Assembly (NCBI GenBank): GCA_010015585.1
Contig: ML975165.1
DNA from: Eremomyces bilateralis CBS 781.70
Lineage: Eukaryota
Strand: one strand, 5' to 3'
DNA: 64,000 nt
The position numbers and the translations under genes were made by a program. This document shows, piece by piece, positions 35,254-43,083 of the stretch. How positions within the stretch are numbered: the stretch's first letter is position 1; each line of letters begins with the position of its first letter. The notes under the pieces are model-generated. The model did not search any database and had not been told where the DNA came from. It worked only from the letters and a program-made list of their open reading frames with translations.

Positions 35254-36965
35254 TCAAGCATTCCAACCAGACCACTCAGGTTTTGGGGGCATCTCAGGGA
35301 CAAGGATCCTCCCCTGGTCGTTCACCCATCCTCCCCCTTGGATGGCTTGTTGATAGATTGCCCCCAGCTTCTCTATGCCTCCGGCATTCGCGATCTCTTC
35401 TTCTGTGGGAGCCGCATATTGATTGAACGCAGCAGGGGTTCCATTCGGGTGGAAGACGTGAGTGATTTTGCCCGTCGCTGGATCAAGGTAGTAGGGCTGA
35501 CCATTTTCCCATCTCACCGGTTGGCCGTGCCAAGTGTGGAGCTGGCCAGCTGCGTTGTATGTGGCGTTTGAATTCCGCTGGCCTCCCTGGAATTGTTCCG
35601 CCGTGGGTGTAGGTTGGGCGAGTGCGTTGGTATGATGGTTGATTATAGGCTGACCGAAGCCGCTGGGGGTTGGGCTAATCGCAGGTTGTGCGAAAGGAGC
35701 AGCTGGGCTAGGAACTGGTTGGCCGAAGGCATTTTGATTCGGATCTGCGGCTGGAGTCACGAATGGAGCGGGGAGTCCGAAACCGGTTGCGGGTGGTTGT
35801 GGTTGTGGTTGAGGTTGAGGTTGGAATTGTGATGGGGCGTTATCCATCGCCGTGTTTGCGAAAGGGCTAGACTGTTGTTGCTGTTGTTGCTGTTGACCGA
35901 AAGGCCCCTGTGGGAGTCCACCGGCATTTTGACCGAATGCAGGTTGCCCGAAAGAGTTCCCGGAGACTTGAGGCTGATTGAAACCGCCGGTTTGTCCTGC
36001 TGGTGCTTGTCCGAATGGGCTGGGATTCTGCTGACCGAAAGGACTAGGAGAAGGCTGCCCGAACGGTGTCGCCCCGGGAGTAGGCTGATTAGATGCTCCG
36101 AACTGGGATCGGCGACCTTTTGCGAAAGGTTGATCGGTGCTCGTGTTTTTGTTACAGATATCAATCCGGTTAGGGTGGACGTCTTTCCCACCAAGTACGT
36201 ACTCTGCAGCCGCTTTCAAATTGCCCAAAATGTTTTGAACTTGTTCGTTAACGGCGGCAGCGAGCTGCTTCTCTTCGGCGTCCTGATGAATCAATTAGCA
36301 CCTGCACATCTTCTACGAGAGAAATACCAACCCCTGCCTGTGGGTTCCCGGCTGCCTGAGCCATATAGAAGCGCACTCTTAGCTCTTCGGGACTCTGTTC
36401 GGCAGGCAACCCATCGATAAGTTGCCTGGTTGAGCTTTTCCCTTCGGGGTCGTAGCAAGAGCAGATCCACTCAGGACGATTTGATTTTAGATCATCTTGA
36501 ATTGCATCCATAATGGTCCTGTGCATGATTCCTGGTTAGAATGCGGTGATGGTATCGAGGGTGATGGTTCGGATATACTGGAGCTCTTTGTTCGCTTGAT
36601 AAGCCGCATGTCCCCTGCCTATAGATTTATTAGAGTTTCATTCAAGACAAAAAAGGCATATCTCTCATCTATGCGTGGGAATGCACGCCGAGCTCAATAT
36701 TCGTGAAGACAGGAAATATGCATACCACTGGGACCCTGTCCACTTTGCCCACCTCGTCCACCTCGTCCGCCTCTTCCACCCCGTCCCCCTGAGGAAGGAC
36801 CTTGGCCATAACCTTGGTTTTGATTCGAGCCTCCTTGACCTACGGGATGCTCAAACCTACAATTATCTAGATATATTTGAGTACAAGTGTTTCGCTTTGA
36901 ATGGGACTGGCAGTCTTACTCCCGTTCCTGCAATTGCCTTGGAGGAAGAACTTGCAGACAGCCAT
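35254..36965 (-). CDS. AMO1: CCCH zinc-finger FG nucleoporin Amo1/Nup42, multi-exon
   Basis: MAVCKFFLQGNCRNG CCCH start, RG-rich segment, EQSPEELRVRFY, PFGQ repeats, terminal PEMPPKPEW. Confidence 0.82.
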
Positions 36966-37638
36966 TGGGATTTGGGGCGACTGATGACCCTAGAGAGGAA
37001 TTTGCACGTCGAAGCTTACACTGTCGGTTGATTGTGTCTAATCAAGTCTAAGGGATAACGCGTTGGAATACGTGAACTTGGTGATATCCAGGGAACCGGA
37101 AGTGATGGTTGTTGTTTGGTTCGGGTTGCAGTGTCGCGTCGCTCGTCCAAAGAGACGAACGTCTTATCGTAAAACGAAGGATATTAATAGAGAATGATGG
37201 TGGAAGAATCTAAAATTGAAAGAGTCAAAGTGGGGTGAAAGATGAAAGATATGGTGAATTTGGTTCAAGTCATTTGACTCAGACAACTGGTCGCAGTAAA
37301 TGAATGACCTCAAGGCAGTCACCACCCAATCAAGTTAGCCCATTACCGTGCGGATTATAAATACACTATCTAATTGGTCAAATTATGCCTTAGTCAGAAG
37401 CACTATACCTAAAGTATACATATATAGTACAGTGATGGACAACATCCCAAGTTCCTACCAGGGCCCGACGATATTGACCACCACGATACGGACCCTATCG
37501 GCGCTGTTACCTTCTTCCAGATCTCTCAGAATGCCTAGGAACAACTGCAGAAGGCGTGACGGTGCCCCATTACAGGCAAGGAATGAAATCTAGCTTTCTG
37601 CATCCTTTGCGCTACCCTCCATCGCTCGCGACGGATTC

Positions 37639-38018
37639 ATGCACCCCTTCTCCATCCTGACCTTGGGGATCTTTGTCGCCGGATACATTACCGCCCGCTG
37701 GGACCTTGTAACTCGCCTGTATGAGCTTGCTATCTTTGCCTGGGATCACGGTGTTATTGTGAGATCAGAGACCACCCTTCTGTCGTGTCTGGTGAAGCTA
37801 ACTGCAACGATAGACACGTGCAGCTAAAGGATTCACGGCCCTCTCGATCATCTTCCTCGTCATAGTCATCCCGGTCAATCGGATCGCAGCTCGAGAAAGC
37901 GAACTGGTACTTCCCACACCTCCAAGTGATCGATTCCTACTGACATATCCAGCAACCGCGAATCGGTGGCCGAGGTATTTCAGCTCGCGAGCAGCTTCAG
38001 CGGCGCGGCTCGTTCTAA
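37639..38018 (+). CDS. Small 92-aa predicted membrane protein, 3 exons, immediately upstream of GPI1
   Basis: Exons 37639-37758, 37814-37906 and 37953-38018 join in frame; both introns are GT-AG with branch sites; two hydrophobic segments. Confidence 0.75.
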
Positions 38019-38048
38019 GCATTCGGGGCCCGGCATGTCGATACAATC

Positions 38049-40299
38049 ATGAGCAATGGGTTGATGCGGGTGTTTTGGCCTTCGGATGCACCCTCCGGGG
38101 TGAACCCGGGGGTATTGGTCGGATTTCGCAATTCGGAACTGGACTGTATTGTGGTAGCAATTCTGCAGGACGTTGAGGTACAAACTCCATCATTGGAAAG
38201 GTGCTAGATTGCTAAGATATTGCAGATCAAGAGCGTGGACATCGCCTTGAAGCTCGGCATCTTGTTCCGTAATAGCGAGTTTCCCATCGACCAGCTGTTT
38301 GAGCGTTGCGGAGGATCTCCTTTGCAGGTTTTGGGAGTCCTGAATACAACCAAGGAAACGTATGCTTTCGATCCGCACACTATAGTCGCCAATACCGCAG
38401 CCAAGTCTCATTTTCCAGCAATTACCTGTCCGGGGCTGTCGAACTTCACGCTCCAGGTGATCGTATTCGACCGTCCACATCCCAGGCGCATGCAGTATCT
38501 TTCGTTGTCGCCAATATCCTTGGAACTTGGTGATGACAATGAGAAAGCGAGCAGCGAACCAGCACTATTCGATCCAATCAACGCAAAAGAGGAGGCTGAG
38601 TGGGAACGGAAGGCAACGCTAGTGGAGAAATTGAAGCTCCATACCATCATCTCTCACCCGAGCACGCAGCAGGAAAAGTCTTTGCCAACGATCGTTGAGC
38701 AGATCAACTGCTCATATGAGATTTCGGCTTTGCTGCAGGGAAATATCCACCTAGTTGGAAGGACTCGAAGCAAACGCTCCTTGAGTGTCGGCGAGAGGGT
38801 TGTTGAGTCAGCGACAAATCTTTGGGACTCGATTCTACAGGTTCTCTACAACGTCTTCACAGCATACATTGTTCCTATCTGTCTCCGCCTCCTGGTTCTG
38901 GTGTTTATGGGCCATCGGATTGCAGGCGAGGTTACTCTCCTACTACTGGAGTGGAGACCGCTTGCGAATTCCCTTGCTCTCAAAGATGTTTCAGCCACGG
39001 CCCAGCAGGTCGATATTCGATTGCAGCAGTTCTGCTATTGGCCCGACCAATACATGACGCTTCAAGCCCGAAAGCAGAGCTGGAAGAGCATCACGACGAG
39101 CCATCCGGAATACATTCGGTTCTATAACAGCCTTTGGCTGGTTGCCAATGATGTGATCATCGGCATGGCCCTCGGAAGTTACATTATCGAAAACGCAGAT
39201 TTTGTTGCGGCTCAGCTTGATTATGTCCTGATGACATGGACAATCACCGGGCTCCAGGGCATGATTGTATGGCTGATGGGATGGCCTGCTGGGTTGAAGC
39301 TTAACACGGAGCTTGCTACTTTCCTTGGAGATCTCTTCCTCTGGGTAATCGACTACTGGGCCGGCTATATGTCTCTCCTGCGGCCATATCTCCCGAACAT
39401 CATCTCCTTCATCGGCTTGTCTTCATTCGCAGGCGCGACCATGCCCATAAGTCTCTTCTCCGATCTCCTATCTATCCTCACTCTCCACATCTACTGTTTT
39501 TACGTCGCCAGCGCCAAGATCTACAACTGGCAGCTCACCATCTTATCCTCCCTCTTCCACCTCTTCCGCGGCAAGAAAAATAACGTCCTCCGCAATCGGA
39601 TCGACTCCTGCGATTACGATCTGGACCAGCTTCTCCTCGGAACTATATTGTTCGCGATTCTTGCATTTTTGCTTCCGACCGTCATGGTCTACTACGCAAC
39701 GTTTGCAGGGGCAAGGATGGGCATCATATCACTAAAAGCGCTCCTTGAAATGGGCCTTGCTTGCCTTAACCACTTCCCTCTCTTCGCGCTCATGTTGCGG
39801 ATCAAGGACTCGCAGCGCCTTCCAGGTATGTCTAATCCTATTTATCCCGTGAGCTTTACTCTTGGCTAACGTTTCACCAGGCGGAATCCGCTTCCGTAAC
39901 CTCCCAAATCCACGAACTGAACCTACCGCTCACATTTATCTAAACCCCGTCCCTCTGCCCATCCACCTATGTTTCCATTCCTACCTTTACCTCTATTCCC
40001 GATTACGAGCGCACTACGCTTCGTTCTCGGTGTTTTTCTGTCTATTAACTGGTCAATTCGTCCCTCCAATCGCCCGGAAAGATTTGTATGGCCTGCAGTA
40101 TGGCATGCTTCCCAAGATTCGGGTTAGCGTAGGCGATCTGTGGAGGAGGTTCCGGTTCGATGAGTTGGGGAAGGGCAAAGGTAGCGGACTGGGTTCGAAG
40201 GTGACTCCTCGCGGCTTAAGGCCCCCAACACCGCGCGAGGGGATCGCTGGGTCTAATGGTTCGGTCAGGACGAACGGGATACCCAGAAGGTCTCATTGA
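38049..40299 (+). CDS. GPI1: GPI-GlcNAc transferase subunit Gpi1 (PIG-Q)
   Basis: MRVFWP, GWPAGLKLNTELATFLG, LFRGKKNNVLRNRIDSCDYDLDQLLLGT; introns about 38178-38225 and 39826-39880. Confidence 0.93.
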
Positions 40300-41310
40300 G
40301 TGTATACGTACTCTATGAATGAATGTAGAGCTGTGATTTTCCATGTCATACCTTGGGACGCTCTATGCCACGTCTCAATGATGTAATTGGATCGATATTT
40401 TCCAAGTGATAGGTATTTACAAAATATTTCTCTATCCCGTTGCTTAATAGAGATGCTAGACAGCTCTATTCCGACATCGGCGTTCACAATATTGTTGATG
40501 ATATCTGCTGCTGGTTCTTGTCGTCCAAAGGACGACCCACAGTTGATTTATCCATCGCATCTCCAGGATCTCTTCCATCTCCATTTCACGGCAATCTGAA
40601 CCTTTGCCAGCCAGCGACTCCTTGTCCTCGACAATTGGATTCCAATGATCTTCAAGCTACTGATTCGTCATAATGATAGCTTCCATGTAAATCCTGCTAA
40701 CCGGTTGAAATTGCCGGCAGTACCCTAACAAGCATTATTGATTGGAGAGAAGCTCCGCGCTTTGTGTCCCGAAGCAGAGGGCAGCATTGATTTTTATTGT
40801 TTCCGAACTTCTCGCCATTCCTCTTCAAGCCGCATATGAAATTCATCTACTTTTTGTCTAAGTTCTCAATGCGCTCGCATCAGTCTGCCCAAAGTCCCCA
40901 ATCGGGTGCAGCGGGCCATTATTCCTACCGAGGACTATTTCCCTCCAGGTTGCAAAAGGGATCGCCATGGTAGGTATTATGTGTGATGTGTCCAGTTTAG
41001 CCTTTATGTGCCCCAGAGTCTGGCTCTGTTCGAGACTTCGTACTTCGTAGCCGAAATCCCCAGGATTTAGAGCTTGTATTCTCCAAGTTGGAGGTTAAGG
41101 AGGGACCGGGATTCCCCATGCTCTTGAGTCAAGCATTGTAGGTATCGCGGTCTTTCCCCACAGGTGTAATACATAAGACAGCAGAAGGAACAGAAAATCG
41201 GCAGATGAGATCCCTGGACATCGGTGGTCCATATCTGGTCTAATGTCCACCTTTGGAATCATCGCGATGGCTGGAGTAGTCTTTAACATTACGCACACGA
41301 AGTCGACGCA

Positions 41311-43083
41311 ATGGGAGACGTTGAGAAGCCGGCCGATATCACGCAGGTTGTGTCTAAGGAGACAGTCTCTTCCGGGGAGCAACCGTTCATTGATCCAGCC
41401 GCAGAGAGGAGATTACTATGGAAGCTCGACTATCGGATAGTTCCCATCCTCTGGCTGCTCTTCTTGTTGGCATTCCTTGATAGGTCGAACATCGGTATGT
41501 GTCGTCCCCGAGAGTTTCAACCATCACTAATGGGCTTGGATAGGGAATGCGAAGATCCAAGGGCTTACCAAGGACTTGAATATGAAAGGAAATGACTATA
41601 ACATTGCTCTGTTCATCTTCTTTCCTCCGTATATCATCTTCGAAGGTCGATCAACTTGCTTCCCCCCAGAGGATGTAGCTTACAGCCTCTAGTGCCGGCC
41701 AATCTTGTGCTCCGCAAAATGGCACCCTCGACATGGCTCAGCGCGATCATGGTCGGATGGGGTGGGTTATCATTGCTTGACTTACGATTGGCTTGTAGCT
41801 GACGCCTTTTTAGGTATTTGCACGGTGGGACAAGGACTCGTCAACAACCTTGCCGGGCTTGCTAGCTTGCGCTTTTTGATCGGCATTTTCGAAGCTGGTC
41901 TCTTTCCAGGTATGGCTGGAATCTTCAAGCACGGCCTGAAAGATATTAACAATTGACAGGTTGTATATACCTGATATCGATGTATTATAAACGATACGAG
42001 ACCCAGTGGCGCTTTTCAGTCTTCTTCAGTGCTGGTATAATTGCGCCCGCGTTTGGTGGTGTAAGGCCTGCCGTTTCAGTGAATTCAGAACTCATTGTTA
42101 ACTAACTAACTACCGATTAGTTATTCGCATACGCTATTGCCAAAATGGAGGGATTGGGTGGCTACAGTGGCTGGCGATGGGTACCACTCCCGAACCATCG
42201 CAACCAACGTGGACGCTAACATCCCTTATAGATATTCATTATAGAAGGCCTGATCACGATTATCATTGGCGTCGCTTCCAAATGGCTCATCGTTGACTGG
42301 CCCGAGAAGGCGACGTTCCTCACCGAGGAGGAGCGCCGGATCCTGCTCGCGCGAATCCAAGCCGACACTGGCGACGCCAGAATGGACCGCCTCGACCGTC
42401 GTTCCGCCAAGCGCATCTTCACCGACTGGAAGATCTATTGCGGGATCCTCATGTACATCACCGTCGTCAACACGAGCTACTCCACCGCCTTCTTCACACC
42501 GTCCATCATCAAGGACATGGGATACACGTCCTCGGCGGCTCAAATTCGATCCATCCCTCCGTGGATCGTGGCGTTCGTCGTGTCGTTGGGCACCGCGCTG
42601 GTCACTGACCGACTCCGCCATCGATATTCATTCACGATCTTTGGCCTCATGCTTTGCATTATCGGCTACGGCATCCTGCTTGTCCCTTACGGCTCCACTT
42701 CTGTCGGTGTTAAATACACGGCGCTGTTCTTCGTCATTACCGGCTGCATGACCGCTCAGCCTATCATTGTCGCATGGCTTTCCAATTGTGCGTCGGGGCA
42801 TTATAAGAGGGCAGTCACAAGCGCGGCGGTGGTGGGCTTCGGCAACTGTGGTGGTCTCATTGCGAGCAATGTGTTCTTTGAAAAAGAAGCGCCGGCATAT
42901 CGGACGGGATATAGGGTTAATACGACTCTCATATGTCTGTGTCTGGTGTTCTGCACGGCCATGTTCATTGGCGTCCGGTGGGAGAACAGGAAGCGGGATC
43001 GGGGGGAGAGAGACTATCGGTTGCAGAAAGAGGACGCAGACAACCTTGGAGACGACCATCCTAGCTGGCGGCTCTCGCATTAA
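41311..43083 (+). CDS. MFS transporter, anion:cation symporter (Tna1/Dal5-like), about 7 exons
   Basis: ERRLLWKLDYRIVP, AFLDRSNIGNAK, EAGLFPG, GWRWIFIIEG, WENRKRD, LGDDHPSW. Confidence 0.9.

Follow-up and report, generated by a model that had tools for sequence, protein, structure and literature searches.

A predicted 92-residue membrane protein of Pezizomycotina is probably encoded in one dicistronic transcription unit with Gpi1

The locus and its gene models

We analysed a stretch of 64,000 nt from contig ML975165.1 of Eremomyces bilateralis CBS 781.70 (assembly GCA_010015585.1), hereafter called the window, in which a small spliced open reading frame (ORF) of 92 codons lies on the plus strand directly upstream of GPI1, the gene for a subunit of GPI-GnT (glycosylphosphatidylinositol N-acetylglucosaminyltransferase). 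Based on spliced RNA-type contigs, the linkage of the two ORFs across the subphylum and the contexts of their start codons, we consider it probable that the small ORF and GPI1 are one dicistronic transcription unit, which has existed since the common ancestor of Pezizomycotina. All coordinates below are positions in the window, and the ORF map of the mRNA was built by joining exons by their coordinates. In this map the small ORF consists of exons 37639-37758, 37814-37906 and 37953-38018 and encodes 92 aa. A preliminary description of the same DNA had already derived the 92-aa protein from three exons, with a TAA ending at 38018 and the GPI1 ATG at 38049, and both the translation and the RNA contig agree with it to the base. 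The features of the locus are as follows, with their basis in brackets.

37568..40358, plus strand: spliced RNA-type contig with leader, small ORF, spacer, entire GPI1 and about 59 nt of 3' untranslated region, taken as the minimum transcription unit (run X1)
37583..37660, plus strand: upstream ATG in the leader (mRNA position 16, context GGAATGA), the start of an out-of-frame ORF of 25 codons that extends over the small-ORF ATG (ORF map)
37639..37758, plus strand: small ORF exon 1, codons 1-40, with the first hydrophobic helix and a near-invariant amphipathic stretch; weak-context ATG with T at -3 and C at +4 (translation, homologues, RNA contig)
37759..37813, plus strand: small ORF intron 1, 55 nt, GT..AG, phase 0, after codon 40 (contig joint 37758 to 37814; position shared by relatives)
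37814..37906, plus strand: small ORF exon 2, codons 41-71 (31 residues), with the second hydrophobic helix (translation, contig, fold model)
37907..37952, plus strand: small ORF intron 2, 46 nt, GT..AG, after codon 71 (contig joint 37905 to 37952, cut +1; position shared by relatives)
37953..38018, plus strand: small ORF exon 3, codons 72-92 and TAA, with the C-terminal SAREQL-x-RRGSF, where x is Q in the window (translation, alignments)
38019..38048, plus strand: spacer of 30 nt between the small-ORF stop and the GPI1 ATG, here in frame and stop-free, neither property being kept in relatives (sequence, ORF map)
38035..38052, plus strand: five-codon mini-ORF in the spacer, the TGA of which overlaps the GPI1 ATG as ATGA (ORF map)
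38049..38177, plus strand: GPI1 exon 1, 43 codons, ATG at 38049 with A at -3 (ORF map, contig)
38226..39825, plus strand: GPI1 exon 2, which carries the Pfam Gpi1 domain PF05024 at E 8.2e-113 (Pfam search, contig)
39881..40299, plus strand: GPI1 exon 3, with the stop codon at its end, 40299; the full protein has 715 aa (ORF map, contig)

By our own reading of the sequence, the introns of the small ORF contain the branch-like motifs CTAAC and CTGAC.

Spliced contigs that span both reading frames

A public sequencing run, X1, whose record gives no kind of run, contains 0.74 of the sampled words. Over 36500-41000 its contigs show 0 differences from the window and leave out six segments bounded by GT..AG (by CT..AC in the minus-strand neighbour), and because of these six intron-less joints we read the run as RNA-derived. 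One contig of 2589 nt covers the locus in the pieces 37568-37758, 37814-37905, 37952-38175, 38224-39821 and 39877-40358, with 0 mismatches and 0 gaps. All four introns, two of the small ORF and two of GPI1, are spliced out of it, whereas the TAA and the 30-nt spacer are kept; the splicing that would join the small ORF in frame to Gpi1, which the preliminary description had named as a result that would speak against it, is therefore not what this contig contains. The pieces of the run end at 37242 and resume at 37568, and end at 40358 and resume at 40478, with two zero-depth bins at 37255-37556, and these gaps were not used as evidence.

Bridging spliced contigs come from three organisms: in addition to the window's own, L031 and L054 can be set against genomic copies. 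L031 is a spliced, intron-less copy of genomic L046 (99.4-100% identical) and begins with a leader of 177 nt; then come the small ORF, a spacer of 20 nt and a complete Gpi1 of 711 aa, which shares 99% identity with a protein of Alternaria. L054 matches L036 in spliced form and runs from codon 15 of the small ORF through Gpi1. Additionally, L021 is without introns that are present in L049, to which it is 87-93% identical, and is suggestive only, while L014, L024 and L025 have both ORFs uninterrupted, a form in which RNA and intron-poor DNA are indistinguishable. The RNA bridging the two ORFs may be a single molecule.

The first 114 nt of L054 were considered as an alternative first exon that would skip the small ATG. 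This was ruled out, since they have no match within 4 kb upstream in the genomic copies; L054:1-114 is an assembly chimera that, by our own reading, resembles the start of the chloroplast psbA message.

Linkage to GPI1 and the intercistronic spacer

A metagenome scan for the small ORF gave 225 confirmed loci, of which 80 were kept. Gpi1 is found directly downstream and on the same strand in 73/80, and on the opposite strand in 0/80. The remaining 7/80 loci end 2-80 nt past the small ORF, so that linkage is complete (73/73) wherever the sequence continues for more than 80 nt. The small ORF is closed by a stop codon in every one of the 49 unique loci (TAG in 36, TGA in 11 and TAA in 2), and the distance from this stop to the GPI1 ATG is 6-32 nt in 48/49 and 63 nt in the other one. 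The preliminary description had proposed adjacency to GPI1 across Pezizomycotina as a check, which the scan answers positively, and it had seen no room between the ORFs for a separate terminator and promoter, a statement that the short spacer now extends from one locus to the subphylum. The locus thus has two non-overlapping ORFs on the same strand, each conserved with its own stop, as expected of a dicistron. Similarly, the spacer offers no space for a downstream promoter, although this does not directly exclude a start inside the small ORF.

The same adjacency is seen in named genomes, in the consecutive locus tags W97_04337/04338 and WHR41_04334/04335. Among over-long Gpi1 models from named species, 25/28 include the N-terminus of the small protein and skip its stop by invented junctions that differ between models; because they contain this N-terminus we consider them fused mis-models. 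P0161, P0147 and P0169 are further fused Gpi1 models. In P0169, a Beauveria thailandica model of 719 aa, an N-terminal UPF0203 domain (PF05254, E 1.1e-25) is followed by the small protein from residue 14 and by Gpi1, and because this model fuses three proteins, a third gene appears to lie just upstream on the same strand in that species.

The small protein is a conserved family

A search with exon 1 alone gave 1019 proteins at E <= 0.01, far more than chance would yield, and the best 120 of the 1019 matches are 90-98% identical. Many annotated 92-aa proteins match all three exons, under the name 'hypothetical' or, misleadingly, 'phosphatidylinositol glycan, class Q'; the small ORF is in this sense already in the databases as an unnamed or mis-named protein. 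Per-column identity is 85% in an alignment of 22 proteins and 81% in a wider one of 49, and the length is nearly always 92 aa. The family was found in every Pezizomycotina class sampled (Eurotio-, Dothideo-, Sordario-, Leotio-, Orbilio- and Pezizomycetes). Its members include Aspergillus, Penicillium, Histoplasma and Exophiala, many Dothideomycetes, Fusarium, Colletotrichum, Podospora and Xylaria, Botrytis and Erysiphe, and Orbilia javanica (Orbiliomycetes) and Morchella importuna (Pezizomycetes). An ORF without conservation would have counted against the preliminary description, and this family, present throughout the sampled classes, is the opposite case.

The 73 linked loci gave 53 unique spliced coding sequences, in which introns, where present, sit after codon 40 and/or codon 71, some lineages being intron-less. 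Mean pairwise identity at codon positions 1/2/3, determined over 48 unique coding sequences, is 0.757/0.904/0.423. In the last 12 codons it is 0.831/0.957/0.369, with synonymous codons free to vary. Because third positions differ even in this invariant C-terminal dozen (SAREQL-x-RRGSF), selection acts on the peptide and not on an RNA element, and an RNA-level element in the last 12 codons, of the kind of the termination upstream ribosome-binding site (TURBS), was ruled out, its third positions being only 0.37 identical. Judged by these identities, the small ORF is a real gene product under strong purifying selection, and this selection on its amino acids is an indirect sign that both ORFs may be translated.

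An AlphaFold2 model of the protein is a helical hairpin with a mean confidence (pLDDT) of 84, in which helices span residues 3-36, 39-71 and 82-88 and pLDDT is >= 90 over most of the first two. Hydropathy peaks at about residues 10-12 and 50-60. The N-terminal 40 residues are the most conserved part, and the second helix keeps its hydrophobic character while its sequence varies.

No named relative was found. At E <= 1, neither the three window exons nor the read-through ORF matched a Pfam family, and 22 full-length members still matched none when the threshold was relaxed to E <= 10. In the protein atlas, the clusters that came up were those of the family itself, besides one bacterial cluster whose 0.82 is below the lead threshold, and there was no named cluster. 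By sequence, the PDB contained no relative (one junk match at E 1.4), and a Foldseek comparison of the model with the PDB gave 0 matches at E <= 10. In a representative profile search at E <= 0.001, the best 150 of 252 matches all look like the same family or its mis-models. Two divergent 91-aa members from short contigs, P0248 and P0270, share 63% identity between them and 45-56% with the other members; the SAREQLRRRGS motif is retained at their C-terminus, the N-terminus is different, and they could mark the edge of the family outside the sampled classes.

Start contexts and AUG content

Start contexts were compared in 55 unique loci for the small ATG and 49 for the GPI1 ATG, and spacer ATGs were counted in 43 unique spacers. 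The small ATG has T at -3 in 47 loci and C in 8, that is, a pyrimidine in 55/55, and +4 is C in 54/55. The sequence is variable at positions -12 to -4 and -2 to -1, where T is the least frequent base. At -3 of the GPI1 ATG, G occurs in 33 and A in 11 loci, a purine in 44/49.

Internal Met codons are absent from the small ORF (0 in 53 unique coding sequences), and ATG in any frame occurs 0.94 times per coding sequence, against 3.35 expected from base composition. T-ATG-AG of Tyr28-Glu29 accounts for 36 of the 50 ATGs observed; by our own inference, a T at -3 is usual for this ATG too, since the base in question falls in the middle of the Leu27 codon. A weak ORF1 context, a strong ORF2 context and few AUGs between them, the features expected for leaky scanning, are thus all present, despite an ATG in 23/43 spacers. 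Within the spacer, 20 of these 23 ATGs lie exactly 8 nt before the GPI1 ATG, a fixed spacing; that of the window is at -14.

Leaky scanning past weak AUGs is described as extensive in Neurospora (PMC7049704), and green-algal bicistrons are described as having a weak context at ORF1, a strong one at ORF2 and few AUGs (PMC11291117). In yeasts and Aspergillus nidulans, a 9-bp spacer is reported to permit reinitiation (PMC10352335; PMC11952965). The weak-then-strong contexts and the AUG-poor interval are the signature of leaky scanning, and reinitiation over the short spacer would also be possible. A tight, short spacer is not needed by leaky scanning, which suggests an additional route by termination and reinitiation. 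Which of the two routes dominates translation is judged here from sequence features.

The leader ATG at 37583 matters only if transcription begins upstream of it. Overlapping upstream ATGs occur also in the leaders of the RNA-type contigs L014, L021, L025 and L009, the 5' ends of which are unverified starts. Ribosomes using an overlapping ATG of this kind would bypass the small ORF and could reinitiate at GPI1.

A dicistronic transcription unit and its alternatives

In the reading that we favour, a single promoter upstream of about 37568 would give an mRNA of about 2.6 kb. Its first cistron would encode the 92-aa helical-hairpin membrane protein and its second, 30 nt further on, Gpi1, the PIG-Q-type subunit of GPI-GnT. 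With its weakest-context AUG (pyrimidine at -3, C at +4), the small ORF would let many scanning 40S subunits pass; these would cross about 300 nt without a Met codon and with on average less than one out-of-frame AUG, and would then initiate at the GPI1 AUG with its purine at -3. Ribosomes that finish the small ORF would terminate 6-32 nt upstream of the GPI1 AUG, at which they may start again. That both ORFs lie on one transcript had been proposed in the preliminary description, and the spliced contigs in three organisms, the short spacer across the subphylum and the weak-then-strong start contexts argue for it; the part that goes beyond them is the single molecule, which contigs cannot prove.

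Several observations weigh against this reading. Run X1 is not recorded as RNA, and we take its RNA nature from the joints. The bridging contigs are assemblies, and a contig over two genes does not prove a single transcript; in a Zymoseptoria tritici Iso-Seq preprint, short-read assemblies are said often to merge overlapping neighbour mRNAs (10.1101/2023.04.26.537486). The locus counts come from related sequences and are not independent events, and the tie between the small protein and Gpi1 is one of gene linkage. Avoidance of ATG at the synonymous level is weak (50 observed against 60.9 +/- 6.1, with 18/500 resamplings at or below the observed count), so that the ATG poverty would mostly stem from the protein sequence itself. 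The out-of-frame ATGs in 23/43 unique spacers mostly have a purine at -3 of their own, and of the mini-ORFs that they open, 9 have a stop that adjoins or overlaps the GPI1 ATG, while 14 extend into GPI1 by 5-48 codons. Because spacer ATGs are common, and such an ATG lowers ORF2 output in algae (PMC11291117), pure leaky scanning is an unclean fit.

The alternative that survives best, although we consider it unlikely, is that of two independent, overlapping mRNAs, in which the small gene is polyadenylated inside the 5' part of GPI1, GPI1 starts inside the small ORF, and the contigs are assembly merges. The limits of contigs and the merging seen in Zymoseptoria tritici, both given above, fit this explanation, as does the length of only about 1 kb of many database contigs that carry the small protein, though these are possibly mere fragments. 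However, the promoter and start of GPI1 would then have to lie inside a coding sequence whose protein is 76% identical throughout the subphylum, intron-less lineages included. Separate mRNAs would need neither the spacer of 6-32 nt (48/49) nor the pyrimidine at -3 (55/55), so that both constraints would be left unexplained, and the merge would have had to occur in spliced contigs from three organisms.

It is also conceivable, though quite improbable, that the main role of the small ORF is regulation in cis, as an upstream ORF (uORF) in which the C-terminal SAREQL-x-RRGSF gates the GPI1 AUG from the exit tunnel and the released peptide has no job. The fungal arginine attenuator peptide is a uORF peptide of this type, which acts in the ribosome exit tunnel at termination. 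The small ORF is like such uORFs in its upstream position, its C-terminus conserved in amino acids while codons vary over the last 12 residues, and its stop near the main AUG, where 6-32 nt would place a paused ribosome on or next to the AUG. It differs from the arginine attenuator peptide in being about four times as long and spliced, in its two hydrophobic helices and in a conservation that is strongest at the N-terminus. The N-terminal 40 residues, for which the 90-98% identity among the best 120 of 1019 matches was found, would be outside the ribosome at termination, yet they are the most conserved; the two hydrophobic helices are maintained as in a membrane protein, and 92 codons with two conserved introns are long for a regulatory uORF. 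A regulatory role and a role of the protein are not mutually exclusive.

A fusion, in which stop-codon read-through or alternative splicing would give an N-terminally extended Gpi1, is highly improbable: the two ORFs of the window share a frame, with 10 stop-free spacer codons, and 25/28 long database Gpi1 models join both, but the frame is shared in just 16/49 unique loci, about the 1 in 3 expected by chance, some in-frame spacers contain stops, a stop ends the small ORF in 49/49, the junctions of the fused models differ and are invented, and the RNA contigs retain stop and spacer. As the frame relation is not conserved, read-through in particular is unlikely.

Comparison with known systems

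Murakami and colleagues reportedly found in 2005 that human PIGY, a mini-subunit of GPI-GnT, is made from a bicistronic mRNA together with the PreY ORF. That case resembles the dicistronic reading of the present locus in that a GPI-GnT gene shares its mRNA with a second small ORF and in that a small two-helix membrane protein is involved. It differs in that the mini-subunit is downstream and its partner ORF is unrelated to glycosylphosphatidylinositol (GPI), whereas here the known Gpi1 is downstream and an uncharacterised protein is upstream. No sequence relationship between the small protein and PIGY was detected in Pfam, the PDB or look-alike clusters.

Green-algal polycistronic loci translated by leaky scanning (PMC7896298; PMC11291117) are close in layout. 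Two conserved ORFs lie on one capped mRNA and ORF1 is often a tiny membrane protein (test loci TOM22 and OST4); ORF1 starts in a sub-optimal context and ORF2 in a strong one, AUGs ahead of ORF2 are few and the ORFs lie a short distance apart, all as proposed for the present locus. In contrast, the fungal case is a single locus kept over a subphylum, its spacer is 6-32 nt where many algal inter-ORF distances given there exceed 100 bp, and in about half of the fungal spacers there is an additional ATG out of frame, most often exactly 8 nt ahead of that of GPI1. The Glarea lozoyensis bicistrons and the 9-bp IGG6 derived from them (PMC10352335) are similar in being bicistronic mRNA of a filamentous ascomycete with a very short intergenic distance and a downstream cistron that is a separate protein. 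Those are lineage-specific secondary-metabolite genes and engineered constructs, whereas here a housekeeping gene is found in an ancient arrangement. Furthermore, the conserved weak ORF1 context of the present locus points to leaky scanning, while reinitiation does not need it.

A candidate partner of GPI-GnT

The association of the small ORF with GPI1, kept since the root of Pezizomycotina, makes it a real possibility, which we would stop short of calling probable, that the small protein acts with GPI-GnT. It may do so with Gpi1 or with the enzyme as a whole, in the membrane of the endoplasmic reticulum. More tentatively, the 92-aa protein could be a new Pezizomycotina-wide subunit or regulator of GPI-GnT that replaces or adds to the Eri1/PIG-Y class, its dosage being tied to Gpi1 by co-transcription and a start-context-tuned split of ribosomes. 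Small size and two predicted membrane helices are what a mini-subunit would have, and the protein shares its similar size class and predicted helix pair with Eri1/PIG-Y, PIG-P/Gpi19 and DPM2, its gene being tied to that of a GPI-GnT subunit. In yeasts, cross-talk between Eri1 and Ras/protein kinase A has been described.

A profile match to the PIG-Y or PIG-P families, which the preliminary description had put forward as a check, was not obtained, since the 22 members matched 0 Pfam families at E <= 10; as these families are poorly conserved, this is weak evidence. Eri1/PIG-Y is reported to be the least conserved GPI-GnT subunit, with 14-22% identity between yeast, Candida and human (10.1101/2024.02.28.582498), and because of this poor conservation the absent sequence match does not exclude equivalence to Eri1/PIG-Y. 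The small-protein family is, in contrast, extremely conserved. In an AlphaFold3 model of the human complex, PIGY, PIGP and DPM2 are described as contacting PIGA and not PIGQ (PMC12182360). A Gpi1 profile gave 0 matches in the PDB, where no solved Gpi1/PIG-Q structure is found.

Neighbouring genes

Upstream of the small ORF, a divergent neighbour lies on the minus strand at 36248-37242, with a spliced contig (depth 210) over 36725-37242 that has CT..AC joints. One of its exons gives a CCCH zinc-finger match just below the Pfam cut-off (PF18044, E 3.6e-05, 23.8 vs 24.6 bits). The next gene downstream of GPI1, at 40478-41000 and 41287-41595 on the plus strand, is on a separate contig of much lower depth (7.9), and its first large ORF has no Pfam match at E <= 0.01.

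Significance

A full-text literature search gave no paper on the small ORF or on a GPI1 dicistron, although preprint supplements outside the reach of this search might list the locus. GPI is not mentioned in the covered text of fungal polycistron surveys, and a Fusarium graminearum Iso-Seq preprint required ORFs of at least 100 aa and would miss one of 92 aa. Eukaryotic dicistronic mRNAs that are read by leaky scanning or reinitiation are a known kind; this case is new, unusually deeply conserved and has an uncharacterised protein family. For annotation it matters that in many public genomes the locus is wrongly modelled, as one fused and over-long Gpi1 (25/28 long models), or the small protein is called 'PIG-Q'.

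Fungal cell walls cannot do without the synthesis of GPI anchors. The first enzyme of this pathway is a target of antifungals, jawsamycin reportedly acting on Spt14/Gpi3 (PMC7341893), and new GPI-GnT components were still emerging in 2025, such as ARV1 (PMC12182360). A protein that is near-invariant from Morchella to Aspergillus and Fusarium, absent from Pfam and linked to GPI1 is a cheap and obvious candidate for a missing fungal-specific component. If the dicistronic reading is true, the unit would be among the most deeply conserved dicistronic mRNAs in fungi, and the locus would be a natural system in which to study how ribosomes are apportioned to two cistrons by leaky scanning and reinitiation.

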